NCBI GenBank assembly: GCA_977862235.1
Contig: OZ374557.1
Coordinates: 3,348,001-3,412,000, forward strand
Source of the DNA: Dudresnaya verticillata
Lineage: Eukaryota
Direction of reading: 5' to 3'
DNA length: 64,000 nt
Part shown: one piece after another, positions 4,020 through 27,492 of the stretch
Layout: every line of letters begins with the position of its first letter
How positions within the stretch are numbered: the first letter of the stretch is position 1
Translations under genes and position numbers: made by a program
Notes under the pieces: generated by a model
The model's input: the letters and a program-made list of their open reading frames with translations, nothing else
What the model was told of the DNA's origin: nothing
The model's database searches: none

Positions 4020-5155
4020 ATGCGGATCCGTGACGCTACCATTTCCAAGCACAGCGACCGCTCTACAGAGTCCATTCTGCTTGTGGCACGCTGCCGCAGC
4101 GCGGATCTGAGCAACGCCATGACCTGATTCTTCCTACGGGACGTGCTCTACGCCGAGGGAGAGCAGGCTCTCAACCGCGAGAGGCACCTGCGCATTAGCG
4201 CGATGCGCTTCGACCTTGACGCCATCGACGACATGGTCTGCCTGCAGCGCTTTCGCTTCCGCAAAAGCGACATCTACCGTATCGTTCAGAAGATGGAGTG
4301 GCCTGCAGAGCGAAATGTCACTACCCGACGCTGCTACCGCACAACTGCTGTGTTTTCCTTCTGTGTCCTGGCTCGCCGTCTTGGCACCATCTGCCGTTGG
4401 TGCGATCTGGAACTGGAGTTTGGAAGGCCGGCTGCTGCGCTGTCTGAGATATTCTACGAGGCTCTGGAGTTCATGTTCGACACGTTTGATGCGCTGGTTA
4501 CTACGTTCAGGTCGTCCTTTCTGCAAGAGCGTGCGGAGATGTATGCTGACGCTATTCATAATGCGGGTGCTGCTTTGGACTCATGCGTCGGGTTCATAGA
4601 CGGAACCAATATCTACATCGCCCGTCCGTCGGGGCTTGCGCAGCGTGCCACATGCAACGGGCACAAGCGCCGAAACTGCCTGAAGATGCAGGCCGTGAGC
4701 ATGCGGGATGGGCTCATCTTCCATATGTTCGGTCCGGAGGAGGGGCGTCGTCACGACATGACGCTGTTCCGCCACTCGGCCATCGAACAGGACCTCTCGA
4801 CCTCCCTGCTTATCGACGGACGCCAGTTCTACATCTACGGCGATCCCGCATACGCGTTGCGGTCGTGTTTGTAGGTAGGATTCAAGGGGGCCGCGCTTTC
4901 CGAGGAACAGAAGGCATTCAACAAGAGCATGTCTATAGTGCGGGTGTCGGTGGAATGGGCATTCACGGACTTGAAGAATTATTTCACGCACGTCGACGCG
5001 ACGCGCCAGAGGTGCGGCCGAGGGTTCCTGCGTCGAAGCGGTACCTCGTTTCCGCTGTCCTCTGGAACTTTCGAGCCTGTATGTAGGGCTCGCAAAGCGC
5101 GCGATTCTTCAAGTGCCCGGCTCCGTCGTTTGAAGCGTACATTGCGACGCTCTGA
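4020..5155 (+). pseudogene. Harbinger (HARBI1-like) DDE transposase, disrupted
   Basis: Motifs GFIDGT, GRRHD, YGDPAY, RVSVEWAF; in-frame stops near 4125, 4874 and 5086 and a frameshift near 5000. Confidence 0.92.
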
Positions 5156-5461: not shown

Positions 5462-6117
5462 TGTGGTGAAGTGAGATTCGGCATCCGAAACGATGGAAAT
5501 GCATATATTGTGGCCTGAACCGTTGTGGGATGTGTGCACGTGTACCCGTGTCGGTTTTGGGTGCATTGTTGTGTGCTGGCGTACAGTGCTGTGCAGCAGT
5601 GGAGCGCACCAACCATACCGGAGTATTTGTAGTGTTTATTCTTTATTTTTAGTGAGTCTGTGTACAGTGTGTAGAGTAGCGCGCCAGCCAATGAGAATGC
5701 TGCGCATGTCCGTGTCGGAGATTGGGACCAGCAGGGCCGATTCCACCATAGTACCAGACCACTGCGGTCTGGCCCCCACGGACCAGACCGCTCGGTGCCA
5801 CCCTGACTTGTATATCAGGGCGGCACCGCAGCGGCTCCTAAGGTAAACGGGTAAGCAACCTTAGCCCAATCCTTTACGGGTTTCCCCGCGCCGAGCCCGT
5901 TGCGGTCTACCACCACCACCGTTACGGAGTCCGTCCCGGCACTTGTACCACCCCCTTGTCTGTTGCTTCCCAATATCCGTCTCGGTTAGCCGCTCGCTGT
6001 TCTCCCGTCTCGGTGCGAACTGCTCTACCACCCCGTGGAGGTAGTGTTGCTCTCGTCCGTTAAGGAAAGTCAGGCCAGCTGTCCGTCTCGGAGTTCGTCG
6101 GTTTTCACTACACCACA
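5462..6117 (+). repeat. 5' LTR, family A, variant U3 (656 bp)
   Basis: TG...CA ends; followed by PBS; first ~130 bp differ from the other family A LTRs. Confidence 0.95.
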
Positions 6118-6122
6118 TCTTT

Positions 6123-6140
6123 TGGTCTCCCGACCTAGAA
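6123..6140 (+). promoter_or_regulatory. Primer-binding site TGGTCTCCCGACCTAGAA (probably tRNA-Tyr)
   Basis: Starts with TGG 5 nt after the LTR; identical 18-mer next to the family F 5' LTR. Confidence 0.85.
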
Positions 6141-6265
6141 CACCGTCACGGTTGGAAGAAACAGCCGTCGAAATCCGCTACGGTAGGAATTCGGCTGTAC
6201 CGACAACCCGTTACGGAATATTGGATAGATAAGCAAGAACAACCGTTGTGTTCCGTTAAGGTATC

Positions 6266-7770
6266 ATGCAGAACGAAGAACAGGCAGACCCTCCCGTTAC
6301 GGAACCTAAAGCGGGTGACACTAGCCCCGCTGCGCGCAGTCTGCGCAGTGAAGGAGGTAAAATCCGTTCCGGAGTGGAGAACCCAGAAGACATCCTAAAG
6401 GGTGCTGCTGGTAAAGCTCCCCGCTCCCGTGTCGGATCAGACGCCTCGAAGAAGGCAGCTCCGCAACCCCAGCCGGAATCCCATCGGGTCCACTGGGTCC
6501 TGTCGGAGGTCGTTCCTAGGGTGTTAGAGCATCTCCGATTGGAAGTACAACCTGGAATGGTAAAAGAGGTGGGGATATCCCTCTCGGAAACTGTTCCGTC
6601 TTTGGTTAATTCCTATCTGGAGCAGCACCTTCCTCGAATAGTGCAAGCTTTGATCCTACAGGAAAAGGTGGCCGCCGAGCTCGAGAGCCAGATTGCTCCC
6701 GGCATGGCAAGGCCTCCCGCTACGGAAGCTTTCACTGAGCAACCACCGTTACGGAATGAATTCCCGGTCGAGGGAAGAACGCAGCAGCCGCAACCACCCC
6801 CCGTTATGGGATTGCAGCCGGGTACAGTACCCTCTGGGCCACTGCCACCGGCTCCCGTAACGGATTCTCAACATCAACACGCCCCTACGGGACCAACACC
6901 CACTCAGCCACCGTTACGGTATTCTCCTGGACACGTACATGTGCCTACGCCAGGGCGCTATCAGCAAGAGCGCTATACCGTTCCGGTTCGATCAGGTGCA
7001 GGCAGCGACCATCTCAGCGATGCGTCCAGCTCACCCCATCCGAGTCGGAGGACCGGTCGAGGTCGGCATAAACGAGATGCCCGACACTCCCGCTCTGACC
7101 CTCCCCGTCGGTCGCATATGGGCGACCACACCCAGCGACGACGCCACCAATCCGGTATGGAATCCAATGAGAGCAGCTCAGAGGATAGCCAACACCGCCG
7201 CCGCAAGAGGAGAAACAGAAGATCGCGGAAACGCGAAAAAAGGCATGACTCCTCTACCTCTACGGATTCGGACTCAGAGAGTTCTTCCGTAACGGGTAGA
7301 GAGAATAGGCACCGGGCCAGAAAACACGGTGCCAAATCCGGAAAGGTGAAGGTAATCCGGCCACTACATGACAAGTTTGTCAAGGCGCTGGACTACCGCA
7401 CCTACCGATTGGATACGAGGAGTAAGACACACGGCTCTAAGTTCTCACAAAACATGAGCCGTATACGGAAGAAACTCGACGTCCAGATGTCGTCCCATAC
7501 ATTCGATGGGACGGACCCTATTACCGTCTTGGGATTTCTCGCTAAGTTCCGTGACGGTTGTAACATCAACGGCATCGCCGAAGGGGTTGCCGTCTGATGC
7601 TTCCAGTTTTTCCTTAAAGGACAGGCCGAAGCCCTTCTACAGGCTAGGCTTGCTGGAGACACCATGGTGATTGACGTGGAGCAGGTCGAGATGCTCCGCA
7701 CATATTCCGAGGTGGTGAACTTTTTATTGAGAACCTACGCTACGGATGAAGTGATTGCTGAAGCCTTTCC
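6266..7770 (+). pseudogene. gag: Ty3/gypsy gag, with an in-frame stop and 3' truncation
   Basis: Directly after the PBS; LDYRTYRL and FDGTDPITVLGFLAKF align with family F gag; stop at 7597; joined to RNase H near 7770. Confidence 0.85.
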
Positions 7771-10087
7771 ACTTATATTGGCTCTACCCCGTCACGGATA
7801 TAAATATACGTTGGACACTGACGCATGTGACCATCAAGTCGGCTGTGTCCTTCTGCAGGAACAACCGAATGGCGATCACCTCCCTATTGGATACTGGAGC
7901 CGAAGCCTCACCGATGCGGAGAAAAATTATACGACAACCGAAAAGGAATGCTTACCCGTGGTCTGGAGCATGTTAACACTCCGACCCTACCTTTACGGGG
8001 ACAAGTTTATTCTCCGAACGGATCACGATGCCCTGCGGTGGATCCTGAACCTCGCAGACTCATCTGGCTGCCTAGCCAGGTGGAGGCTCCGCCTATCGGA
8101 ATTTGAATTTGAGGTGCAATACCGTCCTGGAATTAAGCATCAACTCGCCGATGGGATGTCGCGACTCCGAACGGATGGCGGTGACGATAGACCTTTGGAT
8201 GAAGAGATACCCTGCTTTATTGCCGAAAATACCGTCGACGGATTATATGAACATGGAGTCTATTTAACCGATTGGGCCACATCACGAGAAACCGCTACGG
8301 AACATAACGTAATATGCGCCGTGGAGCCCGCCAGTGGGAGTGCATCCGCCTCCCCCGACAAGCCCGACGCAATACCGTCACGGTTTACTGTAATCCAAGA
8401 ATCCGACGTTATGGATGAGACAATTACCAGGGAGGCGTTCCTCGAAGCGCAAGCCAGAGACCCTTTCTGCCGTCTCAAAGCCGATACGGTACGCTCCCCT
8501 GGATCACAGTTTGACTATGACCGTAACGGATTCTTGGTACGCAAGTCCCAATTGGATGGTGCTCTGCAGAAGGTGGTGCCAAGCGAACTCCGTGGACGGG
8601 TATCGTATTTATCCCACTACACCCTGATGTCGGGTCACCCAGGTGGAATTAAGATGTATTATACACTCCGACAGGATTATTATTGGCCTCATATGGCCAA
8701 CGATGTATTTGAATCCGTTCGGACATGTCGCTCCTGCGTGAAGACAAAGGGAACCCGCTTTCGGAATCAAAGGTTTATGAAACTTTTCCCCGCTAGCGGA
8801 CCTTTGGAGTTTGTTGCTATCGACATTCTCGGGCCACTTCGGAAGACAAAACGGGGTTATGTCTACGTTTTGGTAATAACCGATCGGTTCTCTAAATTGA
8901 CGCGCTGTATCCCGTTACGGACAACAACAGCCGTTGTGGTGGCTAACGCCTTTCTGGACTTTTGGGTGTATGCGTATGGCGCACCCCAATTTGTCCTAAC
9001 CGATAACAGACCGCATTTTACTGCTAAGTTCTTTGATGCAGTGTGTTCCTTACTCGGAGTCTGGCATCTACTTACCGCTGCCTACCATCCGCAGACAAAT
9101 GGGCAACCTGAGCGATTTAATAAGACAATCACCCAGCGTTTGCGCTATTACGTTGAGGATCATCACTTCGATTGGGATTTGTACCTGCAACCGTTGACGT
9201 ATGCGTACAACATGAAGGTACACCGTATTACGGAAACAACGCCATTTGATTTGGTGCTGACACGCCACCCATCGGACATTGTTGTACGAGGGGCTCCTGT
9301 CGAGCATCAAGAAACCGTTACGAAAGGGCGTATGACCCCGGTGTTACAGAAGCGGAGCACCATGCGCCGTTTACGGTATGCGCTCCAGACAGCGCGCACT
9401 AAGCAGACGGTGGCTCAACAAAAAGCCAAGGCACTGTTTGACCGTAAGGTGCTCTTTAGGCCCATAATCCGTAGCGAAGATCAAGTCGATGTCGACCGGC
9501 CGCCCCATAAGTTGCGGCCTGCCGAACGCCGTGAGCGGGACCGATTGGAAGGCAAACCGGATGATGTGGGCGAGGTGGCTCAGGAAATGAAGAAACTTCT
9601 TCCGCGAGCCACGGGGCCTTATGAAGTGGAATCCGCAACGGAACATGTCGTTACAATCCGCAAGGAAGGGGTATTGATCCCAGTAAGTATCGATCGCATC
9701 ACGAAAGTTCCGATCAGAGTTGCGGTTCAGCCGGCACCCTTGACAGTGCCGCCTGTCACGCCATCAACCGTTTACGGAGAAGTAGTGCCACATCCAGAAG
9801 GTACTACAGTAGCGCCTACACCGTCAGCGGGCATTACACCCTCCGTAGCGGAACCCTTACAAGCCGATACGGAATATGTGGTCGACAAGATTGTCGGTCA
9901 CCGCGACAAACCTACTGGGATGACATACAAAGTTCGCTGGTATGGTTACCCTCCGGATCAGGACACTTTTGAGCCCGCGGAGGAGTTGCCGCAGAATTTC
10001 ATCTACCGGTATTGGAAGCAAAAGAAAAAGACATCCGCTAAGGGTAAGCCACGGCGACGTGCTAACTCAGCACGTCACTCACCGTAA
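7771..10087 (+). pseudogene. pol: Partial pol: RNase H, integrase, chromodomain (PR and RT missing)
   Basis: LDTDAC and YTTTEKECL (RNase H); H-H-C-C and D-D-E (AIDIL, LTDN, PERFN); GPY motif; chromodomain YVVDKIVGH...KVRWYGY. Confidence 0.93.
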
Positions 10088-10255
10088 CGGACGATTGAAA
10101 TGCTAGTGTGTGAATCGTACGATGTTTATCGCAAGCTAAGGTCGAGGCATATTTGAAACCGTTAAGGAGATCGTCGACCTGTAACTCTAAGAGTCACGAC
10201 GACGTCGCTTTGGAGCAGGGACAGCGGTATCTTCCTCGTTGCTCCCCTGACCCGT

Positions 10256-13028
10256 TCACAAGCCGGGTTCCCCACTCGGATCCGATCGGAATACGCGTTG
10301 CGTATTGTCTCCCAAGACGCGAATCGCACTATCCATGCGCCGACGCTGACGACGGACCACTGCGCGGAGATGAATTACCTGTTCCATCAGCCCCTCTGCT
10401 AGGGTTAGCACTTCCTGAACGGATCCTGGCAATGGGCAGCGCTGCGTACGGCAAATGCCCCGTAGCACCTGTAACCGACCTTCCGTAGCGGCTAGATGAG
10501 CCGGAACCGTAACGGGGGATCCTCATCTTCTTGAAACTCTACCTTCGGGGCGATAGACGGCTTATCCCTAACCCCGGCTTCGATTGAATGCTCCGTTGAG
10601 GAAACCACCAATACGGATGGTCCCGACTCGGGTGAAGGTAAGTCCTTCCGCAACGGTGGATTCGTATCCTTCTTTGGCGAGGCGATATCGCTTTTCCGTA
10701 ACGGTTCAGGACTTGACACGGGGACCGAGGGCTTGTCTCCAGTTTCCCCAACACTTTGGCGCTTTGGACCCACTTCCGATACGGTGATCGGTGCCTCACT
10801 CACCGCTGGTGTGGGAGTGGGCGCCAACAGCGGAGCATTTGGCGGGAGCGGTTCAGCGGCGGCAGGCATTTGCGTCGCAGGAGACAGTGCCGCCGGCACA
10901 GTATCCGGCGCCACTTCCGAAACGGTCTGCTCCTTTGAGGATCCCTTCTTGGATGGTGCCGCAGGCTTGGGCACCGCCATAGTCGGCGCAACCACGCCCA
11001 TGGGCGTTGGAGCCTTATCCGATACGGGAGTAGTGGTCTCACGACCCACATGACGTGGGCGTCGCGACCACCGGAAGGATTGGAGCGGGTGTCTTCTCGC
11101 TACCCGCTGCCATTGATGCGACGGGCATGACCTCCTCCTGTTCTTCCAAGAAGGGGTCAGCCTCTTGCTGTCTCACCGTAACGGAACCGCGCGGGTCGAT
11201 TGTACGCGAACGCCCCGCTGTTTCTTGACAGCTTCCCCAATCTTCAGCCTCGTCCAAACCGTCACGGTACGCATCCCTTGGTGCTTAGCGAGGCGCATTA
11301 CCCCCATGGGCCTGCACCTCTAAGGCCAACCATTCCGGCCGCGGGTCTTCTCGATGAAGGAAATATGGCTCTCCCACTCCAGGTCTAAGCGGGGGCACCG
11401 ATAGGACACGTTCCTCATCCCAACTATACCCCAAGAAGCCCGGAGTGCGTTGCCAATCCTGCTCTCCGTGTACGGATAAAAGACGCTCAACCCGATGGAG
11501 CGGGTACGCCGACCCCGTCACCAAATCGGCTACACCACTTGGCGGATTAGAGCAATCACCGTCACGGGAAGTTGAAAGATACGGCCACAGTCCCCTCCGG
11601 GTAGGTCAGCATCATCACGCGGGAAGCAGCGCCAGTCGGATAACTTGGTATTGCACCGCACCCCGTAGTAGGCAACTTGGAGCCACGAAAATAGCACCAG
11701 CATTGCCCACTCCGATCGGAAGATGCGCCAAAGCACATCGAGTTGATCTTGGATAGGGGACGCTCTCCATTCGGGTGCTCGTGATTCCACCCCCGCTCCG
11801 CAAGCAGGTCCGCAGAGAAGTACGCCGCCACAGAAGGCGTAGGCACGGATAACCAACGCGTTACCTCGTATTTATCCCACCACGACGGAGCTGTGAGATA
11901 GAGCTCACGTCGCATCCGATACGGAAGGTGGAAGAACTCCTTGGTATTCCACGTGTGCAAGATGGGTGCCCCCACGTGCATTCCGTCTCGGTAACGCGTC
12001 CGCAATCAGTGTTCCGTCGCCGCGTCGTCTTTCCATCCGTCGGCATAGCGGAACCAATACACCAACTGGTCATACGGAGGGTCAAACCAGATAAACTGCA
12101 CCCCGATCGGTGCACCCCGTAGACAGAATGCCTTCGCCAACAAACGGCTCACCTTCGCGGTGTACCCAACTTCCCCGTGGCAACGGTACCACAACAAATC
12201 CGAAACGGTAGTGGTGCGCTCTTGGCAGTAGCTGTGCACCCATCGGCTTTGCCACACAAACGCCTGCCGGTTCGGTACGAAACCAATTCGCTGGTTTGCC
12301 TTGAAGGTCTGCTCCGAAACGGCTTGGTATCGTCGCGCTTCCAAAACGGTTGGGTAACCCTCGATGAAGTGTGACACTGTCATCGGTGTTGTCACCTTCG
12401 CCCGTTTCGCATCGGATCTCACCGGGCGCCCCGCGCGATGGTCAAAGTGGTTCCCCGGCCAATATCCGCCCGGGGCAGGACCCTCACCGCTACGGGTACG
12501 CTCCATTGGCATCCAAGAGCCGGTCGTCGGCGTCATGCTCCGCACTGGCACTCGCGACCGTTTCGGAATACTGCCTGACGTATATGGGCTTGCACCCAGG
12601 TTCCGCATCGGGGTTGAGACTGGGGTCGATGGCGTCCGTAACGGGATCGCGGGTAGGTCCGCCAAGTTGAGCTCCTCCCCACCACGTCGGATCTCCTCGT
12701 CGTCATCCTTGGCCACATCTTCTCCGCGACGGTGTGTCGCTACATTCCATGACGGGGTGCTCCTTGTGGCTGAGCCGGCAGCAAACCGATTCGGATCGTA
12801 GACAGACCAGCCGCGGCCCGCCGATGGTGCCTGTGACGGTTCCGCTGCGGTAACACCCACGCGACAACTCGTCGTGCGTGGTGCCACATCCGCCGAGGCC
12901 GAGGCCTGCGCTTGCGTCGAAGCATCCGTAACGGTAGGCGCACCCGGCGCTTTCGTCGTCGAGCTCGCGCGGGTACGCCGTGTCGGTTGAAAGGGCGACG
13001 GGGAGCGCTTGCTCTTCTCCCCTGACAT
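10256..13028 (-). pseudogene. Antisense accessory ORF of family A (conserved domain ~11285-12480 plus P/A/S-rich tail), disrupted
   Basis: Fragments 12006-13028, 11562-12005, 11530-11856, 11285-11524 and tail ORFs are collinear with the copy at 17111; ATG in ACCATG context. Confidence 0.85.
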
Positions 13029-13162
13029 GGTGGGAGAAGCGCGCACGAAGGAGGAGGAAACGTTGAGGACGATACCCGTATCGGTTGTGTGTGGGTGTGG
13101 AAGCAAAGGTAATCCGTGACGGTGGGCGCCCGAGGACGTGGCGCCATTTAAGGAGGGGGGTC

Positions 13163-13837
13163 TGTGGTGAAGTGAGCCGTGGCGCGCATGCGGCACGCCG
13201 ACGGCGAGCCAACCGTAACGGGTGATGTGGCAATACGCCACGCTGATGATCTGGCAACGTGTAACCGTGTCGGATGTTGTGCGCATTGCTGTACGCTGGT
13301 ACGCATTGTTGTACAGTAGTGGAGCGCACCAACCGGAGCGGAGTATTTGTAGTATTTATTCTTTATTTTTAGTGAGTATCTGTACAGTATGTAGAGTAGT
13401 GCGCCAGCCAATGAGAATGCTGCGCATGTCCGTATCGGAGATTGGGACCAGCAGGGCCGATTCCACCATAGGACCAGACCACTAGGGTCTGGCCCCCACG
13501 GACCGGACCGCTCGGTGCCACCCTGACTTGTATATCAGGGCGGCACCGCAGCGGCTCCTAAGGTAAACGGGTAAGCAACCTTAGCCCAATCCTTTACGGG
13601 TTTCCCCGCGCCGAGCCCGTTGCGGTCTACCACCACCACCGTTACGGAGTCCGTCCCGGCACTTGTACCACCCCCTTGTCTGTTGCTTCCCAATATCCGT
13701 CTCGGTTAGCCGCTCGCTGTTCTCCCGCCTCGGTGCGAACTGTTCTACCACCCCGTGGAGGTAGTGTTGCTCTCGTCCTGTGAGGAAAGTCAGGCCAGCT
13801 GTCCGTCTCGGAGTTCGTGGGTTTTCACTACACCACA
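13163..13837 (+). repeat. 3' LTR, family A (675 bp), preceded by PPT
   Basis: PPT AAGGAGGGGGG at 13150-13160; TG...CA ends. Confidence 0.95.
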
Positions 13838-16301
13838 ACCTCACAGACAGCCGCATTTGCAAAAATCCGACATGGGGGTCCTACCACACATAAAGGAGCA
13901 AACACTCTTGGAGATTGTTGCTCTCACCGTAGCGGAATAAGTTTCCCCAACGGTCTGCTCGAACGCGCAGTCGATTACGCTCCCATATCCACAATGGACA
14001 ATTCGTACTCCGATCGGATGACGGTACTTCACACCGCTACCTCCTGACGGAAGTTGTTCCGACTTGGGTGGCGAGAAGTTGGGGGGCTAGTGTGGCAGTA
14101 TGGACGCTGTCAGCAGAAGGGCTTACAGAAGCGCACTTCTCTTCGCGGGACAGACTGTCCCTTAATCAGGACAGCTGTCCTTTCATCGCTATACACATGG
14201 ATGACATGTGGAATGCACGTGTGTACACGTGGACTTACAGCTGTACACGTGGACTTACAGCTATACACGTGGCATACACGTGGCCTTGTAATGACGCCAG
14301 TTGGATACCTCGTATTGGTTGATTTATGACGCGCCGCTGCGCTCCTACTCACGAACGGGGAGCACCTCTGCGCTCAGGGTATCGACAGTGCAGCCGGGAC
14401 CTCGGCTTGCGCACCGGCGCATTCGCCACCAAGTCCCCTAACTGGAATGCATTCCCACTTTTGACTCGTGCTGACTGTACTAACCTACGTAACTATAATC
14501 ATAGACTAACTCAGACCCCCTTTCGGGCTGATAGACTTCTCGGCTGTCAAGCCCTACTTATGGGCGCCGGAATAGCCGGCGCCCTCAGAATAAACACTCA
14601 GCGGAGTTGTTCGGGCAGTTGCCACCTTTCGCTCGGACACTCCGCGCCTGCAGGGGTCGCCCAGTACAGGCCCGGACATCGTACGACAAGTACTCTACGA
14701 AATACCGGGTCGCAACCTCTATACTTTCCCTCAGTCGGTCGCGCCGAGTCTTTACCGTGCTTCCGCACCCCCCTTTCGGGTCATCAGGGCCCGCCTCTTT
14801 CCAAGCCTCTACCAAACCTCCTTCGAGCTACCACCAATTAGCGTGTGATATCGGACAGCTGTCTTTCTTTGTTCTTTGCTGTTTCTGGCCGGTGCCATAC
14901 TGCTACAGCTAGGTACGCCACAAACCGTCGCAGGCGGCGTGTTTCAGGAATCCGTAGCGGTTACAGGCGAATACCTTCACCCCTGCCCTTATGAGACACA
15001 CCACGAACCTCTCCCTCTTGAGATGAACCCGACCCGCGACGGTGTTAATATATTATTTTCAATATAATAATATACTGAATATATTAATATTAACATCAAT
15101 ATTAATATATACCCGGGACTCTGAGAAGAATAATGAGACGGAGGAATTTTCCTGTACCGTCGCGGAAGGGGCCGTTCTTGGCCCAAACGTGCTGGGCCGG
15201 CCGCCCGTCGCAAGAAAAAGGCGTGCCCCTCCCAGAATGGCTACGACAAACACCGTAACGGCTCTGCCGAGGTGTCCAGAGCGCGTTCCGTGACGGAAGA
15301 GTGCCGCGGAAGCGGTGAAACCTCGGCGGATTATGCCGACTGCGATACTGCGGCAAAGCGAGAGTGCCGTTTCGGGAAATAGGTCGCGTTCCCGGTAGGA
15401 TACGCGACTCACGCTGACAAAAGTCGTGACGGAGCGGTTTCCCCCAGTATGAGCGACAAAATCCCGTAACGGTAGCAGACGTCGAAAAGAGTCAGTTCCC
15501 GTAACTGTGTCGCCAAAACGCGGAGAGTTGCGATTGCCCCAAGCTACAGTGGCTTGTCTTCCGTTACGGTTAGAGGCGCGCCTTGCCTGCGCGTCGCAGA
15601 GGTCTTCCCTTAGCGGAGCTCTTGCGTTTTTGTTTCCAATAGCGGTAGATAAAGTTCTGCGGCAATTCCTCGCCGGGCTCGTAGGTGTCCTGATCCGGAG
15701 GGTAGCCGTACAAGCGGACTTTGTACGTCATCCCAGTCGGTTCGTCACGGTGACCGACAATCTTGTTGATCACAAATTCCGTATCGGCTTGCAGTGGTTC
15801 CGTCGCGGAGGGAGTAGCACCTTCTGATTGAGGGACTACTGTAGTACCTTCTGTACTTGGCACTACTTCTCCGTAAACGGTTGATGGCGTGACAGGCGGC
15901 ACTATCAAGGGTGCCGGCTGAACCGCAACTCCGATCGGAACCTTCGTGATGCGATCGATACTTACTGGGATCAATACCCCTTCCTTGCGGATTGTAACGA
16001 CATGTTCCGTTGTGGATTCCACTTCATAAGGCCCCGTGGCTCTCGGAAGGAGTTTCTTCATTTCTTGAGCCACCCCGCCCACATCATCCGGTTTGCCTTC
16101 CAATCGGTCCCGCTCACGGCGTTCGGCAGGCCGCAAGTTATGGGGCGGCCGGTCGACATAGACTTGATCTCCGCTACGGATTATGGGCCTAAAGCGCACC
16201 TTACAGTCAAACAGTGCCTTGGCCTTTTGTTGAGCCACCGTCTGCTTAGTGCGCGCTGTCTGGAGCGCATACCGTAAACGGCGCATGGTGCTCCGCTTCT
16301 G
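13838..16301 (-). mobile_element. Internal fragment of a family A-related element: integrase C-terminus/chromodomain (15570-16301) and a different 3' region
   Basis: ORF 15570..16322 is near-identical to the pol C-terminus at ~9350-10087; downstream sequence does not visibly match that of the other copies. Confidence 0.85.
14091..14907 (+). repeat. Solo LTR, family E (817 bp)
   Basis: TGTGGCAGTATGG...CCATACTGCTACA ends; TSD GCTAG on both sides. Confidence 0.92.
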
Positions 16302-16976
16302 TGTGGTGGAGTGAAAACCCACGAACTCCGAGACGGACAGCTGGCCTGACTTTCCTTAACGGACGAGAGCAACACTACCTCCACGGGGTGGTAGAACAGT
16401 TCGCACCGAGACGGGAGAACAGCGAGCGGCTAACCGAGACGGATATTGGGAAGCAACAGACAAGGGGGTGGTACAAGTGCCGGGACGGACTCCGTAACGG
16501 TGGTGGTGGTAGACCGCAACGGGCTCGGCGCGGGGAAAACCGTAAAGGATTGGGATAAGGTTGCTTACCCGTTTACCTTAGGAGCCGCTGCGGTGCCGCC
16601 CTGATATACAAGTCAGGTTGGCACCGAGCGGTCCGGTCCGTGGGGGCCAGACCCTAGTGGTCTGGTCCTATGGTGGAATCGGCCCTGCTGGTCCCAATCT
16701 CCGACACGGACATGCGCAGCATTCTCATTGGCTGGCGCACTACTCTACATACTGTACAGATACTCACTAAAAATAAAGAATAAATACTACAAATACTCCG
16801 CTCCGGTTGGTGCGCTCCACTACTGTACAACAATGCGTACCAGCGTACAGCAATGCGCACAACATCCGACACGGTTACACGTTGCCAGATCATCAGCGTG
16901 GCGTATTGCCACATCACCCGTTACGGTTGGCTCGCCGTCGGCGTGTCGCGTGCGCGCCACGGCTCACTTCACCACA
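16302..16976 (-). repeat. 3' LTR, family A (675 bp)
   Basis: Reverse complement of the 13163 LTR; adjacent CCCCCCTCCTT is the PPT. Confidence 0.95.
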
Positions 16977-17110
16977 GACCCCCCTCCTTAAATGGCGCCA
17001 CGTCCTCGGGCGCCCACCGTCACGGATTACCTTTGCTTCCACACCCACACACAACCGATACGGGTATCGTCCTCAACGTTTCCTCCTCCTTCGTACGCGC
17101 TTCTCCCACC

Positions 17111-19810
17111 ATGTCAGGGGAGAAGAGCAAGCGCTCCCCGTCGCCCTTTCAACAGACACGGCGTTCCCGCGCGGCTTCCACGACTAGGGCTCAGGGCGCG
17201 CTAACCGTTACGGATGCTTCGACTCAAGCGCCGGCTTCTTTCTCGGCGGCAGCGACGTACCCGCAACGGGCGGTCGTACGAGCGGGGCCGTAACGGAACC
17301 TTCACCGGCTCCATCAGCGAGCCGAGGGTGGTCGGTCTATGATCCGAATCGGTTTGCTGCGAGCGCAGCCACAAGGACCGTGCTACCAGGGAGTGCAGCG
17401 ACCCACCGTGACGGAGAGGCGCCAATCAAGGACCGCGATGATGCGTTCCGTCGTGGTGCCGAGGAGCTCAGGTTGGCAGACCTAACGGCCATTCCGTTAC
17501 GGGCACCATCGACACCGGTATCGACGCCGAGTCGTAGGATGGTGTCTAGTACACATTCTTCCTCAAGTACACCGAGACGGATGCGTGGGCCCCCGCAAAT
17601 CAATCCACCTGCACCGGGGCCTTGGTGTCCGGCGGTGCATACCCGCGACGGAGAGGGCCCTGCCCCGAGTGGTTATTGGCCGGGGCACCACTTTGATCAT
17701 CGCGCGGGGCGCCCGGCTAGAACCGATGCGGAGAGGGCAAAGATTAAGCCGCCGATGACGGTGGACCTCTTCATTGAGAAATATCCAACCCTCTTGGAAA
17801 AAGAAGGTACAAGGCCGTCATGGCGCAACCCTTCAAGGCGAATCAACACATTGGCGTTGTTCCGAATCGGAGAGAATTTGTATGGCAAAGCCGATGGGTT
17901 CATGGCTATTGCCAAGCGCGGACCTCTACCGTTTCGGATTTGTTGTGGTATCGCTGCCATGGGGAGGTAGGATATACCGCAAAGGTGAGTCACCTGTTGG
18001 CCAAAGGTTTCCGTCTGCAGGGTGCGCCGGTCGGCGTGCAATTCATTTGCTTCGACCGCCCCTATGACCAGTCGGTATATTGGTTCCGCTATTCCAACGG
18101 GTGGAAGGACGATGCCGCAACGGGACACCGTTTGCGAACTCGATCCCGTGACGGAATGCGAGTTGGCTCACCAATCCTGCATACGTGGAACACTAAGGAG
18201 TTCTTCCACCTTCCGTATCGGGTGCGTCGTGAATTGTACCTTACAGCTCCGTCATGGTGGGAGCGTTATGAGGTGACCCGTTGGTTATCTGTCCCTACGC
18301 CTTCCGTCGTGGCATACTTCTCGGCGGACCTACTCACCGAACGGGAGTGGAACCACAAGCATCCGAACGGAGAGCGTCCCCCGAATCAAGATCAACTCGA
18401 TGTACTGTGGCGCATCTTCCGATCGGAATGGGCAATGCTGGTGCTCTTCTCGTGGCTCCAGGTGGCCTATTACGGAGTACGGTATAACACCAAGTTAGCC
18501 GACTGGCGATGCTTCCCACGGGATGAGGATGACCTGCCCGGAGGAGACTGTGGCCGTATTTTTCAACTTCCCGTAACGGTGATCGCCCTAATTCGCCAAG
18601 TCGGCGTACCCGATTTGGTGACGGGGTCGGCGTACCCTCTCCATCGGCTGGAGCGTCTTTTATCCGTACACGGAGAGCAGGATTGGCAACGCACTCCGGA
18701 CTTCTTGGGGTATGGTTGGGACGAAGACCGTGTCCTATCGGTGCCCCTGCTTAGGCCCGGAGTGGGTGAGCCATATTTCCTTCATCGAGAAGATCCGCGT
18801 CCGGAATGGCTGGCCTTAGAAGAGCAGGCCCATCGTGGCTATGCTTCTCGCTAAGCACCAAGGGATGCGTACCGTGATGGTTTGGACGGGGCTGAAGATT
18901 GGGGGAGCTGTCAGGAGGCAGCGGGGCGTACGCGTACAATCGACCCGCGCGATTCCGTTACGGTGAGACAGCAAGAGGCTGACCCCTTCTTGGAAGAATA
19001 GGTGGAGGTCATGGCCGTGGCCTCAATGGCAGCGGGTAGCGAGAAGACACCCGCTTCAATCCTTCCGGTGGTCGCGACACCCACGTCGCGCGATGTGGAT
19101 CGTGAGACTACTACTCCCGTATCGGATAAGGCCCCAACGCCCATGGGCGTGGTTGCGCCGACTATGGCGGTGCCCAAGCCTACGGCGCCATCCAAGAAGG
19201 GAGCCTCAAAGGAGCAGACCGTTTCGGAAGTGGCGCCGGATACTGTGCCGGCGGCACTGTCTCCTGCGACGCAAATGCCTGCCGCCGCTGAACCGCTCCC
19301 GCCAAGTGCTCCGCTGTTGGCGCCCACTCCCACACCAGCGGTGAGTGAGGCACCGATCACCGTATCGGAAGTGGGTCCAAAGCGCCAAAGTGTTGGGGAA
19401 ACTGGATACAAGCCCTCGGTCCCCGTGTCAAGTCCTGAACCGTTACGGAAAAGCGATATCGCCTCGCCAAAGAAGGATACGAATCCACCGTTGCGGAAGG
19501 ACGTACCTTCACCCGAGTCGGGACCATCCGTATTGGTGGTTTCCTCAACGGAGCATTCAATCGAAGCTGGGGCTAGGGATAAGCCGTCGATCGCCCCGAA
19601 GGTAGAGCTACGGAAAGTGGGTTACAGGTGCTACGGGGCATTTGTCGTACGCAGCGCTTCCCATTGCCAGGATCCGTTCAGGAAGTGCTAACCTTAGCGG
19701 AGGGGCTGATGGAACAGGTAATTCATCTCCGCGCAGTGGTCCGTCGTCAGCTTCGGCGCATGGATAGTGCGATTCGCGTCTTGGGACACAATACGCAGCG
19801 CGTATTCTGA
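17111..19810 (+). pseudogene. Antisense accessory ORF of family A, second copy (best-preserved domain 17820-18854)
   Basis: MSGEKSKRSPSPF start; 344-aa open stretch; stop at 17293, frameshift near 17800, low-complexity tail. Confidence 0.87.
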
Positions 19811-20012
19811 TCGGATTCGAGTGGGGAACCCGGCTTGCGAACGGGTCAGGGGAGCAACGAGGAAGATACAGTTGCCCCTGCCCCGAAGCGGCGTCGACGT
19901 AACTCTTAGAGTTACAGTGCGACGATCTCCTTAACGGTTTCCATTATGCCTCGATCTTAGCTTGCGATAAACATTGTGTGTTCTGCTCACACCCCAGCAC
20001 TCCAACTGTCCG

Positions 20013-23000
20013 TTACGGTGAGTGACGTGTTGGATTAGCACGTCGCCGTGGCTTACCCTTAGCGGATGTCTTTTTCTTTTGCTTCCAATATCGGTAGATG
20101 AAGTTCTGCGGTAACTCCTCCGCGGGCTCAAAAGTGTCCTGCTCCGGAGGGTATCCATACCAGCGGACTTTGTATGTCATCCCAGTAGGTTCGTCGCGGT
20201 GACCAACAATCTTGTCAATCACATATTCCGTATCGGCTTGCAGTTATTCCGTCCCGGAGGGGGTAGTACCTTCAGAAGGAGGTACTACTGTAGTACCTTC
20301 TGGATGTGGCACTACTTCTCCGTAAACGGTTGATGGCGTGACAGGCGGCACTGTCAAGGGTGCCGGCTGAACCGCAACTCCGATCGGAACCTTCGTGATG
20401 CGATCGATACTTACGGGAATCAATACCACTTCTTTTCGGATTGTAACAACATGTTCCGTTGCGGATTCCACTTCATAAGGCCCCGTGGCTCTCGGAAGGA
20501 GTTTCTTCACTTCCTGAGCCACCTCGCCCACATCATCCGGTTTGCCTTCCAATCGGTCCCGCTCACGGCGTTCGGCAGGCCGCAACTTATGGGGCGGCCG
20601 GTCGACATCGACTTGATCTCCGCTACGGATTATGGGCCTAAAGCGCAGCTTACAGTCAAACAGTGCCTTGGCTTTTTGTTGAACCACCGTCTGCTTAGTG
20701 CGCGCTGTCTGGAGCGCATACCTTAAACGGCGCACGGTGCTCCGCTTCTGTAACACCGGGGTCATACGCCCTTTCGCCAAATCAAATGGCGTTGTTTCCA
20801 TAATACGGTGTACCTGCATGTTGTACGCATATGTCAACGGTTGCAGGTACAGATCACAATCGGAGTGATGATCCTCAACGTAATGGCGCAAACGCTGAGC
20901 GATTGTCTTATTAAATCGCTCAGCTTGCCCATTTGTCTGCGGATGGTAGGCAGCGGTGAGCAGGTGCCTGACTCCGAGTAAGGAACACACCGCGTCGAAG
21001 AACTTAGCAGTAAACTGCGGTCCGTTATCGGTTAGGACAAATTGGGGTGCGCCGTAGGCGTACACCCAAAAGTCCAGGAAGGCGTTAGCCACCACAACGG
21101 CTGTTGTTGTCCGTAACGGAATACAGCGCGTCAATTTAGAGAACCGATCGGTTATTACCAAAACGTAGACATAACCCCGTTTTGTCTTCGGAAGTGGCCC
21201 GAGAATGTCGATAGCGACAAACTCCAAAGGTCCGCTAGCGGGGAAAAGTTTCACAAACCTTTGATTCCGAAAGCGGGTTCCCTTTGTCTTCACGCAGGAG
21301 CGACACGTCCGAACGGATTCAAATACATCGTTGGCCATATGAGGCCAATAATAATCCTGTCGGAGTGTATAATACATCTTAATTCCACCTGGGTGACCCG
21401 ACATCAGGGTGTAGTGGGATAAATACGATACCCGTCCACGGAGTTCGCTTGGCACCACCTTCTGTAGAGCACCATCCAATTGGGACTTGCGTACCAAGAA
21501 TCCGTTACGGTCATAGTCAAACTGTGATCCAGGGGAGCGTACCGTATCGGCTTTGAGACGACAGAAAGGGTCTCTGGCTTGCGCTTCGAGGAACTCCTCC
21601 CCGGTAATTGTCTCATCCTTAACGTCGGATTCTTGGATTACAGTAAACCGTGACGGTATTGCGTCGGGCTTGTCGGGGGAGGCGGATGTACTCCCACTGG
21701 CGGGCTCCACGGCGCATATTAGGTTATTTTCCGTAGCGGTTTCTCGTGATGTGGCCCAATCGGTTAAATAGACTCCATGCTCATATAATCCGTCGACGGT
21801 ATTTTCGGCGATAAAGCAGGGTATCTCTTCATCCAAAGGTCTATCGTCACCACCATCCGTTCGGAGTCGCGACATCCCATCGGCGAGTTGATGCTTAATT
21901 CCAGGACGGTATTGCACCTCAAATTCAAATTCCGATAGGCGGAGCCTCCACCTGGATAGGCGGCCAGATGAGTCTGCGAGGTTCAGGATCCACCGCAGGG
22001 CATCGTGATCCGTTCGGAGAATAAACTTGTCACCGTAAAGGTAGGGTCGGAGTGTTAACATGATCCAGACTACGGCTAAGCATTCCTTTTCGGTTGTCGT
22101 ATAATTTTTCTCCGCATCGGTGAGGCTTCGGCTCCAGTATCCAATAGGGAGGTGATCGCCATTCGGTTGTTCCTGCAGAAGGACACAGCCGACTTGATGG
22201 TCACATGCATCAGTGTCCAACGTATATTTATATCCGTGACGGGGTAGAGCCAATATAGTTGGAGAGATAAGGCGTCTCTTCAGTTCCTCGAAGGCTTCAT
22301 ATTCCGTATCGGGTAATATTCCAAACTCAAAGGGTGAGCCCTTGCCGGTTTTCTTATTCAGTGGTGCTGAAATCAGAGCGAAGTTGGGTACAAAGCGACG
22401 ATACACGTTGCACATTCCCAAGAAGGATCGCAATTCCGTTTGGTTAGTCGGCGGCTTCGCGACCTTAACGGATATTCCGATTATCCACTTCTAATTTTCC
22501 GGGACGGATAACATGCCCCAGGTATTGTACAGAAGAAGTCACAATTTGACAATTTCAACGTTACCCCAGCGGATCGTAAAAGTGTAAGGACTTCCTTCAG
22601 GTGGTGGAAATGTTCCGTAACGGTTTTTGAGTAGACAATTACATCGTCTAGGTAGACGAGGGCAAATTGCCATTTAACCGTAGAAAGGATTATATCCACT
22701 GCCCGTTGGAAGGTTGCCGGTGCATTTTTCAATCCGAATGGCATTCTCCGAAAACGGTATAAGCCAAAATGGCTAGTGAAGGTAGTTTTGTCCCTTTCCT
22801 CTTCCGGAATCTCGACTTGCCAATATCCGCTATTGCAATCAAGGGTGGTAAATACAGTAGCTTCCCCAAGGGAATCTATGCACTCATCCATCCTGGGCAA
22901 GGGATATGAGTCCCTAACCGTTACGGAATTGAGCCTTCTATAGTCAACACAGAACCGCATGGTGCCGTCCTTTTTTGGAACGAAAACCACGGGGCTGGCC

Positions 23001-23015
23001 CACTCCGATGAGGCT
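20013..23015 (-). pseudogene. pol: pol: RT, RNase H, integrase, chromodomain (frameshift and stop)
   Basis: CVDYRRLN, MPFGLKNAPATFQ, YLDD, RNase H and DDE motifs; frameshift near 22520; in-frame deletion after TPFDL relative to the copy at 7771. Confidence 0.95.
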
Positions 23016-23897
23016 TGTCGTGCAAACGTCGTATCGAAGACGGAGAACGCCTCCGGGCCGTTCGGGAGCCCGGTGGGTAGCCGCTAGTAGCGAACTGGGT
23101 AGAGCGGGTAGAACACGCCTAGGGCGGACTGTAAACACCCAGGGCGAGCGGACGAGGGGGCAAAGAAACCCAAAAGGAAACACGTTAGCAACGAGTAGGA
23201 ACGTGGAAACACGGATGGGTAGACGCTTATGCTTCCGGGCAGCGGTAGGGTGCGCGCTGTCGCGGAGGGGAAGTCTAGACTCAAACCGGCTTGCCGGGGC
23301 TTTACTGGTACGGCCTAGACGAGGTACCTAAGTAACACTATGGGGCCGCGGCGCGACGGCTGCATGACGTGGTGCGCGGGAACCCGGGACGCGTGTCGTC
23401 CCGAGGTACGTCTGACAATTGCTGTCGCCGTGCAGCCGCGTTGCTGACAAGCCCACTCGCCGCAGTCGTGCGCGTCCCCCACGTTGTTGCACGTGTGCGT
23501 AGGCGTTCGAACCGCACATAGGCGCGTAGTGTGATGTTGGATCTGGATACGCGATCCGGATCCTTGCCTGCCGCCTGCCTTACACCGTAGAAACTCTCAT
23601 AGCTTTACACCCCCCTGCTCCCGCGCGCTGGCCTTCCTTACAGCGCGCGACACGTGTTTGTCCAGCACACACGTGTGCCGGTGAGGCCGATCGCGATCCA
23701 TCGATCGTGCTCGGTCTGATGCACGTGGCCCCACTGTGCCCGCGCGCCAGTCAGGGTTGGCGGTTACAGTACGTGGGGCGGTGTGTTCGGGCGTCACTTG
23801 CCGCAAACGGGGTCAACACGCCGTTGGCGACGGTGGCCCGTCATAGACGGTATACACGCTCAAAGCGACTGTGCAGTCAGTGGCTCAATGCACCACA
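23016..23897 (-). repeat. 3' LTR, family F
   Basis: Direct repeat of 34874-35756; adjacent to PPT. Confidence 0.96.
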
Positions 23898-24279
23898 CCA
23901 CCCCCTTCTTAGACGCGAACACGCCTTCGGCTAGCCGCTCCTTATTGTTGACCGCCAACCGCTCACAGCGTTGCATCGTTCGACTGCCGTGCTTGCGTCG
24001 GGCCGTTTCTCACTCGCGTTTGGCGCACTGTATCCGCCGAGGGCGACCATCATCAACCTGTTTCGCCGCCACTGCCGGCAAAAGGCAAAAACCCCCGTCG
24101 GCGACGTTGTTCGGCGGAGAGCTGCCTCGCCTGAAGCGTGTCAATCGCGTGCGAAGTGCGCCGAACGTCCTAGACGTGAGCATCGAGTCCTCGTCGCTGA
24201 CGTGTGGTTGTGATCGTCTACGACGGTTGTGTTGACATCGCCCGTGGCGTGTGTGGAGTGTTACCGTCACTTTGACGTC

Positions 24280-26373
24280 ATGCCGCAGTACGATGGGGCG
24301 CGAGTCGCGCCCCCTTCGTCGATACCGGTGTACCCGTCTTTGTACGACTTTGTCGGAAAGAACCCCCGCGATCACGCGTACCTTTTCGCCCGAGCGCCTT
24401 GGTTCGATCCGGCCGCGCTTGGCAATGAGGCGCTCATCACTCACTACGCCATTGGCGGTATGCTACCAGGGGAACTCCCCCTGGCCGTCGTCTATTCCGC
24501 AGAGTGGAAGACCCGTTGCGCAATCCCCAAAACGTGGGTACGGGTGCACCCCGGCCAGTCGCTCGATGATGCGTATGCGCGATTCGTCTCCGACGTGCAT
24601 GGCCGCTTCTTGCGCTTCCCGGGGACCGACCTGGTCCCCCTATCGTTGGAATTGGACGCGGCCCATTTCCAAACGTACGGCGAGGCCGCTTATGGCTATC
24701 GAATCGCGGAGCTTCCGTTGACTCATATTCCTCCGTCTCTGGACGCACGCGTCCGAGACGATACTTTGGTGATGGGCGTACGCTTGCGAGCGGAGTTCCG
24801 TTACTTGCGTTGGGCCGGTACCTTCTATTGGGAAAGGTGCGTTCGGTGGGAGTGTGAGTCCCGGCGCCGCAAAGGTGTTCTGGTGCCGTACCAATACACA
24901 CAAATCGATCGCTTAGAGCGGGCCAAAGCACCGAATTGTTTCGTCAAACTGCCGCCGCAGTGGCGTGAGGTCGAGGTCTGCGAGAGCTTTGCTGTCGAGT
25001 TGCCTCCCGTCGTGACGTACTTGGGTTCGGAGCTCATGATAAACGCGTATTCGCGGTGGTGGGTCGTGTTCTACACGGAGTGGGCAGCCAACATCGCCTA
25101 CGCGTGGCTCTGGGAGGTGTATGATACCTTTCGGCTGTACCACCTCCCGCCGCGTGTTACTGCGTTCTTCAACGATTTGGATCTGACCGAGACACTCGGC
25201 GGGCAACGGAATCTCCGGGAGTTCTGGGACCTACGCCATGTGGCGGATGAGGTCGACTGGAACAACCCAGCCGTCGTTCCGTTGAGAAATAACCGCCGTA
25301 AGGCGAATCGTCCGCGCTTCGTGATGAGTAGGAACCACAACGCCTGCGGCGATTGGGTCTGGTATAATCCGTGGACCAAACGCCGCACGACGGAGAATAT
25401 CGCAGAACGCCACCGCAAGACGGACCGGTACGTCCCGACGGATTATCTCCGCGGCGCTTTGCCGAGTTGCGACGCTGACGGTGACGTTCCGCCGCACTTG
25501 AGCGCGCTTCTGGCCGAGGAAGATGCTCTTCACGCCTCGGGCGAACTTGCGAACACGTCTGGGACGGGCGTCGCGACCCCTATGACGGTTGACCCGGTGG
25601 CTGTTCCCGCTGAATCGCCCGTGGCGTCGGTTTCCTTGGCACCGCCTGGGCCCGTAGCCACGTCCGCGACGGTTGTTCCCATTCCTGAGGACACTCACGT
25701 CGCTGACGCCGATGGTGATGCCATTATGGCCGGTCCCGTACAAGCGCCGCCGGCGCCTCAGGCAACGATGGTATCGCAACTTCACGTCGGTGATGGGGCA
25801 GCGCCGTCCGCGGCCATGCCGGCCTAGACCTCCGCGCAGCGTGAAGTCGTTCTTTCGCTATTGCGCGCCGCTGGCATGGAGCCTCAGGACTCGAGCGGTT
25901 CGCCGTCAGACTGGTGGGCTCGCTGTTTAGCGACACTGCCGACTGCGGTGGGGGCGGGTGTGCAGACGTTATCGGCTTCTCCGGGTCTGTCGCTTTCCGG
26001 TGCTACCGCAGAGGAAACTCCGTCTGCGACGATCCCTCAACGCAGCGGGTCGCCGACGGCGAAGATAACTCCCATTGCGTCGGTGACGTCGGGCGCGCCC
26101 ATAGCGCCCACGGCGATTATTGCACAAGGAACGCCGGTGGCGGTTGCAGTGGCACAGGCGCCCGGGGCGATGGGGACAGACGGACCGATAGCGCCTAAGG
26201 CGGTTGCCTTGCGTTCGTCGCCGGTGGCGGCTAAGGGTGCGCTACTGCCGAAGTCGGCTGCGACTTCGTCGACGCCGAAGGCGGTTGAGGAGTCTGGCTC
26301 TCCGCTTCGGGCGTCCGTGATGGGGGCAACAGGGGCAGCTGCGGTGGCTGGGCCTTCGCGGCTCGTCCCGTAG
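24280..26373 (+). CDS. Antisense accessory ORF of family F (open to 25827; in-frame A/P-rich tail after one stop)
   Basis: ORF 24229..25827 is Trp-rich; LPPVVTYLGSEL...WWVVFYTEWA...LYHLPPRV aligns by eye with the family A domain. Confidence 0.8.
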
Positions 26374-27492
26374 CCGGCCGACCCGGCCCCAACGTCTCCG
26401 ACGAATGATGATGAGGGCTATGAGGCGGCGTTGCGCGAGTCGGCCGAGGACGGCGCTCCAGACAGGCCAGCGACGCCGCCAACGGTGGGGGAAGATTGAT
26501 ATCCCTCCTCCCTCAGTGTGGATGGGCGCGCGGGTGCGCTACGCGAGTCCGGTGGCCTTCCATAGGGAGTTCCCTGGGCGGGGAGAGTTAGGCGTCTTCG
26601 GACGGGTAGCAACATCGTCGTAGCGACGTGATTACGGTGGGCTGAGCAAGCGTCGACTTGACGTATGTACCCAGTAAACGTCGTCCGTTACTACCGTAGC
26701 TGCTCCACGAGCGCCATAATTTCGTTACCTTAACCGCTCGTGAGGTGACGGTGACCCGTCGATGACGCGAATAGAGTAGCGCGAACATCGGCGTGGGCTC
26801 CCCTTGGCGTTTAGCTGATCATCACGGGGGTCGTGCTCCCCTCCCTTTTGTTTTTTAATAGAGTCCCCGTCGTCTTTGTCGTAGGGATCCCGCGCGATTA
26901 GCACACCGTCGCGACGTTGTCGGAGAAGCCTCTTACCGGTCTGGGCGTCACTCGCCAGGGTCGCCGCTGGCAGCGATAGGGGTTGCCCAATTCCTTGGAG
27001 CCGCGTAACGCGTCGTGCACGCAATTCGTGATCGTGCCTACGGTGAACCTCGTCGCTGACGTCATCCCCAGATTCCCTTGGTCGTGGTTGTGCGGTCCCT
27101 TCGCGACGTGGTCGTTGGCTTGTCCTAGAGGGGCAGGCGTTGAGGTGGGATACGAAGCGCGATTGTCGGTCGTTCCCCCTTGGTGACGATAGTCTGTACG
27201 AGAGGCCGTTCGGGACGGTGTCGCCTTCCCTATACGGCTCCGTAGGCACCGCACCATAGTCGCGTACGGTGAGCCACTTGGCAGTACGGGGAGCTCTGCC
27301 TGCTGGTGGCGGAGTGGATTGTGTTTGGCGCCGTGCGTGCCCAGTACCGCGGTAGGTTCGAGTGGCGTGAGCGGTGTCAGCCACCTTGGCTGACAGTTGC
27401 GCCATAGGGTGCACCTATGAGGACCCATCCCGCGTGTGCTTCCGCCTTGGGCGTTTTGGGGCGCAAGCCCTTTCGTGGTCGGTCGTGACGTT

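Follow-up and report, generated by a model that had tools for sequence, protein, structure and literature searches.

The stretch analysed here, 64,000 nucleotides of the red alga Dudresnaya verticillata (assembly GCA_977862235.1, contig OZ374557.1, positions 3,348,001 to 3,412,000 of the forward strand; hereafter the window, numbered from its first letter), was resolved by self-comparison and Pfam searches into nested, chromodomain-bearing Ty3/gypsy long terminal repeat (LTR) retrotransposons. The elements match RVT_1, RT_RNaseH, rve and Chromo, with a weak protease match (E 0.005), and show the order protease–reverse transcriptase (RT)–RNase H–integrase with a C-terminal chromodomain, between TG...CA LTRs with target duplications CTCGA and AGGCT. 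Family A is represented by a solo LTR, a copy A1 (5538–13837), a fragment at about 15000–16300 and a minus-strand copy A2 split by an element of family F; all its copies in the window are deleted or interrupted. Families A and F, and G, a sister family of A, each carry an antisense open reading frame (ORF) between pol and the 3' LTR (Table 1). Family A is saturated with a short palindrome, which the original prediction took for a sequence motif of this single family. Instead, it exemplifies a system that extends across the clade, with every family carrying a palindrome of its own.

The 29 coordinates first listed for the motif were all exact as read. The 13 perfect copies of CCGTNACGG in 6120–10100 compare with a mean of 0.08 and a maximum of 2 in 200 dinucleotide shuffles; over 6120–23015, we counted 45 (mean 0.54, maximum 5 in 200 such shuffles), together with 127 CCG-N3-CGG against 10 expected. 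Among the 53 perfect copies in the window, 49 belong to family A, 3 lie in an adjoining stretch assigned to no family (14950–15556) and 1, at 48036, is in family G; the family G sites at 48315 and 48465, listed alongside it, are CCGCTACGG near-matches rather than perfect copies. Family F has no perfect copy (0.66 expected) and 9 CCG-N3-CGG (12 expected), and the host-gene regions of the window have no perfect copy. The enrichment persists against shuffled synonymous codons, a null in which CpG counts stay the same: perfect copies number 6 versus 0.44 in gag and 4 versus 0.11 in the RNase H–integrase–chromodomain piece, both above all 1000 shuffles. CCG-N3-CGG exceeds this null in 6 of 6 family A coding pieces (p ≤0.002), and does not in the three F and three host ORFs tested. 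The A coding pieces offer 20 positions at which CCGTNACGG is compatible with the encoded protein, and 17 of them are occupied, in all three frames; the corresponding figures are 0/7 in F and 0/2 in host genes. The sites thus lie in coding sequence as had been claimed for 'gag and pol' of A1, although the protease and RT of this 'pol' are deleted. Site density in family A ranges from 4 to 21 per kb and is highest in the LTR and 5' leader (16–21 per kb).

The motif first described, CCGT-N-ACGG, is real, but the underlying one is broader, CCG-[T>A>C]-N-[A>T>G]-CGG, with 131 sites in 16.8 kb. Written as CCG-X-N-Z-CGG on the sense strand, X is T in 81, A in 26, C in 20 and G in 4 sites, and Z is A in 80, T in 29, G in 16 and C in 6. 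These preferences are dyad-symmetric, and X and Z vary independently. A spacer of 3 dominates (the 131 sites), with minor classes of 4 (28) and 2 (22). Between the 3' regions of A1 and A2, 476 of 3789 columns differ (12.6%), compared with 4 of 177 arm positions (2.3%), 18 of 90 spacer positions and 53 of 468 positions in CCG/CGG outside motifs, and 25 of 31 motif sites are common to both copies. Protection of CpG as the cause was rejected because CpG is neither depleted nor more than barely hypermutable (outside motifs, 14.5% divergent versus 12.8% at non-CpG positions). As far as the sequences can tell, a binding site is the likeliest reason for the constraint; of the earlier proposal of 'selection for a binding site', the saturation and constraint are borne out, and the binder itself is putative. 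The pol region (7775–9254) differs by 3.1% between A1 and A2 and the 3'/antisense region (9321–13162) by 12.6%, which suggests subfamily recombination or faster change of the antisense module.

Family F is paved with palindromes of another kind, such as CGCC-N3-GGCG (27 versus 0.9 expected) and CGTC-N3-GACG (28 versus 1.3). Of 85 sites with its motif CG-X-C-N3-G-Z-CG, 72 have complementary X and Z (A-T 7, C-G 27, G-C 10, T-A 28), and the inner stem pair also covaries; the palindrome is therefore not a weight matrix. Four-base arms in F that do not begin with CG show no enrichment. Against the codon-shuffle null, the F palindrome numbers 20 versus 3.7 in gag, 23 versus 4.4 in pol and 19 versus 3.2 in the antisense ORF. 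About ten F palindromes stand roughly 27 bp apart at 26021–26283, within a low-complexity frame of P-x-A repeats; this stretch could represent an array of sites instead of a gene. Family G has a weak A-type motif (14 CCG-N3-CGG versus 2.5 expected). The element at 1–1924 has CTC[CG]GAG in 7 copies, where the rest of the window has 0.4 over the same length; positions 3223 and 3259 were noted together with this element.

A pol scan of metagenome contigs returned at least 417 confirmed relatives, of which the best 80 were analysed; their hosts are presumably red algae. In IMG/VR, the search gave only three weak integrase matches (24–44% identity over 59–175 aa), which could not serve as controls. 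When 54 of the 80 pol regions were tested against codon shuffles for short inverted repeats, most clades showed an excess at spacers 3–5. Little paving was seen in clade C1, L003 and L047, the last two on short contigs, and one host kinase reached z 3.4 at spacer 1 in the same test. The geometry of arm, spacer and arm is fixed per family, as 5+3+5, 4+3+4 or 4+4+4, whereas arm sequence is often arbitrary; in the 5+3+5 clades, the arms are arbitrary and GC-rich. L055 (5+3+5) has 124 palindromes versus 24 expected inside the element and 6 versus 6 outside, L068 has 95 versus 19 inside and 11 versus 6.5 outside, and L028 (4+3+4) has 222 versus 93 inside and 15 versus 14 outside; the excess ends at the element border. 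L017 has 125 versus 20 expected inside the element, L080 (4+4+4) 119 versus 39 and L004 (6+5+6) 13 versus 3. Between copies, stems diverge by 6.3% versus 12.3%, and loops by 11.4% (pooled, non-independent comparisons). In the 3' region of L031, one 5+3+5 palindrome of fixed sequence, GGGGC-N3-GCCCC with AGT or ATT before it, is repeated as an array.

The stems are also limited in length. Across the 5+3+5 clades taken together, complementarity at the sixth pair has a frequency of 0.14–0.16, versus about 0.29 in the background. The pair flanking the stem is complementary in 17 of 75 family A sites (25.7 expected, p 0.014) and in 18 of 106 family F sites (27.5 expected, p 0.021; both by permutation). 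Single-element permutations found an under-complementary flank in four of five relatives (L017, L073, L055 and L031, not L025). Under-paired flanks are not expected from independent double-strand base preferences, and the covarying arms of F and several relatives suggest that the arms pair with each other, which a simple consensus on double-stranded DNA would not require. Within stems, G.T is not favoured over A.C (116 versus 129).

The antisense proteins of A and F are homologous at about 21% identity (hhalign 97%, E 9e-11), and pieces of those of A and G are 52–58% identical. The motif follows the protein: G shares CCG-N3-CGG with A, and the more distant F has a different palindrome. A profile built from the F antisense protein and five homologs retrieved 1,425 clusters at 50% identity (E ≤0.001). 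Among the 80 loci, a member lies antisense and downstream of pol in 15 with the F-type profile and in 20 with a broadened profile, many other contigs ending too early to tell. Antisense ORFs homologous to one another (30–78% identity) occur in the 5+3+5 and 4+3+4 clades, and their alignment to the family is tentative. The 573-aa minus-strand ORF of the left-hand element (115–1836) reaches an hhalign probability of 1.5% with the family, too low to link the two. With the A antisense piece alone, the homolog search gave none at E 0.001 among 1,870 candidates, and the ESM Atlas had no usable match for this piece or for P0023.

Of 19 antisense proteins scanned with Pfam at E 0.05, 18 matched no family and the remaining one gave a sub-threshold rubredoxin match; none has a family above threshold. 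The AlphaFold model of the F antisense protein is confident and mostly helical (pLDDT 92 and 96), and the protein has conserved arginine and acidic residues. For the full model, Foldseek found nothing in the PDB at E 0.001 and nothing in BFVD, and VIA gave no clear match (best Z 2.6, rmsd 3.5, 60 aligned). For its 219-aa core, the best VIA match had Z 3.2 (rmsd 5.3, 129 aligned) and Foldseek returned none. These searches on a predicted model give no ground for calling the fold new or distinct from known folds. A UHRF1 fragment from a profile search of PDB sequences (E 0.17) was treated as noise, and a two-copy complex prediction made without an alignment was uninformative (score 0.00, fold uncertain).

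To explain the paving, we propose that the protein of the antisense ORF would bind the palindromes of its own family. The sites would be read in DNA, likely as small hairpins (hairpin or cruciform), rather than in RNA; recognition would depend on site density, and the resulting mark would shield the copies of the family from host silencing, as VANC does for VANDAL. For family A, we give the whole chain, in which its own antisense protein reads the palindromes in DNA, probably as mini-hairpins, and marks and shields the copies, a probability of roughly 45%. The identity of the reader, the DNA substrate, the density dependence and the anti-silencing benefit are what we infer. Several observations point this way. 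A fixed footprint, bases that are either fixed or merely paired, and an unpaired flank are what a hairpin-measuring protein would select. Pairing restricted to Watson–Crick pairs, together with dyad-symmetric spacer preferences, favours DNA on both strands. Families A and F are nested in one nucleus and do not share sites, so the reader would have to differ per family, which argues for a protein encoded by the element. The antisense protein is the candidate because it diverges fast and tracks the motif type in A, G and F. Self-marking against host silencing is the likely purpose, judging from the analogy with VANC.

More generally, the protein of each family would measure the length of stem and loop like a ruler; in some families it would also read stem bases: all three pairs in A, the outer CG in F and none in relatives such as L017. 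The palindromes would then form a geometric code of self-recognition, a family-specific stem and loop size repeated as DNA mini-hairpins over the whole element, its coding parts too, and read by a hyperdiverse antisense-encoded protein family, of which A would be the sequence-fixed extreme. Such a protein would tell copies of its own family from other families and host DNA, with or without stem sequence. We advance this broader idea tentatively, at somewhat short of even odds.

A number of findings weigh against these proposals. The 3-bp stem of A is marginal as DNA (about -1.3 kcal/mol), and its core CCG-N3-CGG fits an ordinary double-stranded dimer site equally well. The p values for the flanks are modest and uncorrected for multiple tests. 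Compensatory changes are rare, with three distinct examples in five pairwise alignments and 1 in 25 double changes in pooled pol comparisons, the latter a count made uninformative by the non-independence of the copies and by the control geometries (16/20 and 26/43). Clade C1 has a clear antisense ORF and weak paving; CCG-N-CGG is 2.6–3.7-fold enriched in 4 of 5 of its loci and TCC-N4-GGA 3.6–6.4-fold in 5 of 5, with no excess of 4-bp arms. For the most strongly paved clades, C3 and C4, membership of their antisense ORFs in the family is tentative (hhalign 31%, E 5e-4), and Pfam recognises no nucleic-acid-binding domain in the antisense protein. Finally, the near-equal divergence of CpG and non-CpG positions given above leaves no footprint of heavy CpG methylation to escape.

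The main rival places recognition on single-stranded RNA or complementary DNA (cDNA), where mini-hairpins would be read by Gag or the antisense protein for packaging, coating or protection, or where local folding would avoid long double-stranded RNA (dsRNA). Although unlikely, it is the alternative to be taken most seriously. The sites are spread evenly along the whole element, and folding predictions favour every hairpin on both strands, as RNA and as DNA alike. GNA triloops are stable, and if they form on minus-strand cDNA, an excess of TNC over GNA loops on the sense strand is expected. Such an excess is found in four relative clades (27:14, 18:9, 9:4 and 9:0), and we noted it in clades C2–C4, for example in L017, L025 and L011. 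The asymmetry is reversed in F (5:12) and in L055, however, leaving the idea of C(GNA)G on the minus strand suggestive but inconsistent. There is also no sign of G.U tolerance on the sense strand, and the spacer preferences of A are dyad-symmetric. Antisense transcription can give silencing dsRNA, according to the accessible part of one report (PMC7264820), yet dsRNA avoidance alone predicts neither capped stems nor a family-specific geometry.

Next comes a mutational ratchet without any reader. Short-range template switching by RT and hairpin-templated repair are mechanisms that make palindromes, and here they would both make and keep them. A ratchet would account for covarying arms of arbitrary sequence and, provided that one arm serves to repair its partner, for how little the arms diverge. 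The ratchet leaves unexplained the fixed bases (CCG in A, the outer CG in F), the sharp family-specific size and the under-pairing of the next pair, and broken sites in related copies are mostly one or two arm bases off rather than multi-base tracts. On balance, we find it rather improbable.

Binding of the family A sites by a host transcription factor, for example an MYB protein, is very unlikely. The MYB/MSA consensus is AACGG/CCGTTA; its core is present in CCGTAACGG and CCGTTACGG, and the density of sites peaks in the LTR and 5' leader. However, 18 of the 22 CCGTTA/TAACGG in A1 lie within CCGTTACG/CGTAACGG, and the rest match the roughly 4.4 expected, so half-sites alone are not enriched. 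Changes in the outer arm abolish the enrichment, and F and the relatives use unrelated palindromes.

Slightly fainter still is the chance that cruciforms recruit host centromere or recombination machinery, or guide the integrase, to a safe chromatin niche. Many centromeres are enriched in dyads shorter than 10 bp, which HJURP/Scm3 may recognise, in the accessible text of PMC5889037, and the present elements carry a chromodomain and are nested in each other. Nevertheless, copies lie near ordinary genes (kinases, Myb), and a host protein that reads shape would need neither family-specific geometry nor fixed bases. An artefact of codon usage, composition or repeat expansion, conceivable in elements so GC-rich (51–64% per kb, CpG observed/expected about 1 to 1.5), is practically excluded: every family A coding piece tested lies above both the codon-preserving and the dinucleotide null, and the sites occur in all three frames, dispersed and ending at the element borders.

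We compared the paving with known systems. Bacterial HIP1 and DNA uptake sequences are likewise short motifs that occupy the places in coding DNA where synonymous codons allow them, but they are genome-wide, of fixed sequence and prokaryotic, whereas the motifs here are confined to single retrotransposon families and vary in geometry. The dispersed packaging signals of single-stranded RNA viruses comprise many small stem-loops, including some in coding regions, and are strand-specific, loop-specific and tolerant of G.U; the present sites are dyad-symmetric, show no wobble excess and have mostly free loops, with a loop asymmetry that is weak and inconsistent. VANDALs are MULE-type DNA transposons, whereas the elements here are LTR retrotransposons. 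The likeness to VANDAL/VANC is that each family has its own dense short motif and an extra fast-evolving protein, related families differing in motif (PMC5735166, accessible portion). As described there, VANC binds family-specific motifs whose density matters, and motif binding and demethylation are proven, probes from coding regions being bound poorly (PMC5735166). VANDAL motifs, in the same portion of that source, are non-palindromic, in the same orientation and in non-coding tandem repeats. The present palindromes, in contrast, are dispersed in gag, pol and the antisense ORF and are often defined by geometry, with tandem-like runs only locally (26021–26283 and L031); the L031 array is the closest thing seen here to a VANDAL-like tandem motif array. 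If the proposed chain holds, the system would work like VANDAL/VANC while departing from VANDALs in structure.

The plant Ty3/gypsy elements Grande, RIRE2 and Retand also have an additional ORF in antisense orientation that lies between pol and the 3' LTR, conserved within families and of unknown function, as the available text of PMC7264820 describes. The ORFs here share their position and orientation and differ in having a chromodomain in the element, a red-algal host and a protein without a Pfam match; Retand belongs to a non-chromovirus plant lineage (PMC11963269, available text). That same text of PMC7264820 links no palindrome paving to the plant ORFs. The virion RNA polymerase of phage N4 reads a DNA hairpin promoter in which some stem bases are fixed and some merely paired, as stated in the accessible part of PMC4496689. 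A short DNA hairpin, fixed and merely paired bases and a defined junction of stem and flank are common to both systems, whereas N4 has few promoters, read by a polymerase, compared with about 100 sites per element here; no homology is implied. The centromeric short dyads are, in the accessible text of PMC5889037, neither family-specific nor coding, unlike the sites here.

In the literature, we found no earlier description of such paving, CCGTNACGG included, with most subscription papers and supplements outside the search. What the sequences show is a clade-wide and family-specific palindrome code; its mechanism is what we infer. Whatever that mechanism, the coding sequence of these elements carries a second, dense and constrained layer of information. 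What antisense ORFs do in LTR retrotransposons is treated as an open question in the accessible part of PMC7264820, and here such an ORF is paired with a predicted family-specific target. If the proposal is true, retrotransposons of a distant lineage would have their own equivalent of VANC self-marking, and identity would be encoded by the geometry of palindromes rather than by their sequence. The 1,425-cluster family would then supply proteins adapted to hairpins of various sizes.

Table 1. Elements, antisense ORFs and palindrome-bearing regions of the window
Feature	Position	Strand	Remarks
Separate element	115–1924	-	Long minus-strand ORF; own motif CTC[CG]GAG
Family A solo LTR	1925–2599	+	TGT...ACA; 5-bp target duplication CTCGA; 9 CCG-N3-CGG sites
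A1 5' LTR	5538–6117	+	5'-truncated
A1 gag-like ORF	6260–7597	+	Early stop at its end; 6 perfect sites and 11 CCG-N3-CGG; 6/7 encodable perfect sites filled
A1 pol part	7775–10087	+	RNase H–integrase–chromodomain, without protease and RT; 4 perfect and 10 CCG-N3-CGG sites
A1 3' spacer	10088–11284	none	About 8 CCG-N3-CGG per kb; low-complexity ORF on minus strand
A1 antisense ORF	11285–13028	-	Broken; candidate reader protein
A1 3' LTR	13163–13837	+	11 CCG-N3-CGG sites (16 per kb)
Family A fragment and adjoining motif-rich stretch	14950–16300	-	Chromodomain end of pol; 14950–15556 without blast match to A1
A2 3' LTR	16301–16976	-	
A2 antisense ORF	17111–18854	+	Broken; conserved unbroken 358-aa part at 17778–18854; homologous to family F antisense protein
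A2 pol part	20244–23014	-	RT–RNase H–integrase
Family F element	23015–35756	-	Inside A2; LTRs about 884 bp; AGGCT duplication; paved with CG-XY-N3-Y'X'-CG; no CCGTNACGG
Family F antisense ORF	24280–25827	+	Open over 515 aa; family without Pfam match
Dense run of F palindromes	26021–26283	none	Spacing about 27 bp
A2 protease–RT start	35757–36858	-	Resumes past the F insertion; 3 perfect sites
Family A LTR	36859–37237	+	Partial
Family G, sister of A	47900–51240	none	Antisense ORF pieces; weaker CCG-N3-CGG

The LTRs of A, F and G share a CACCACA end, and the 5' LTR of A1 adjoins 6118–6140, the primer-binding position. Host genes with long single ORFs are a single-repeat Myb (40214–41662), an SRPK kinase (42120–43574) and a long protein kinase (53233–56574). 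The best named relatives of the SRPK kinase (42162–43571) are from the red algae Gracilariopsis chorda, Pyropia, Porphyridium and Galdieria. Pfam also detects a DDE_Tnp_4 transposase fragment at 4128–4874, which we take to be Harbinger-like. Two further repeat pairs were found, 37708–38308/46430–47029 (93% identical, with an LTR-like end GTGCCACA) and 38317–38810/51453–51946 (88% identical). A tandem duplication of about 250 bp lies at 57081–57582 (81% identical), and short tandem repeats with a CACGTG-rich unit of about 20 bp occupy 14210–14290.

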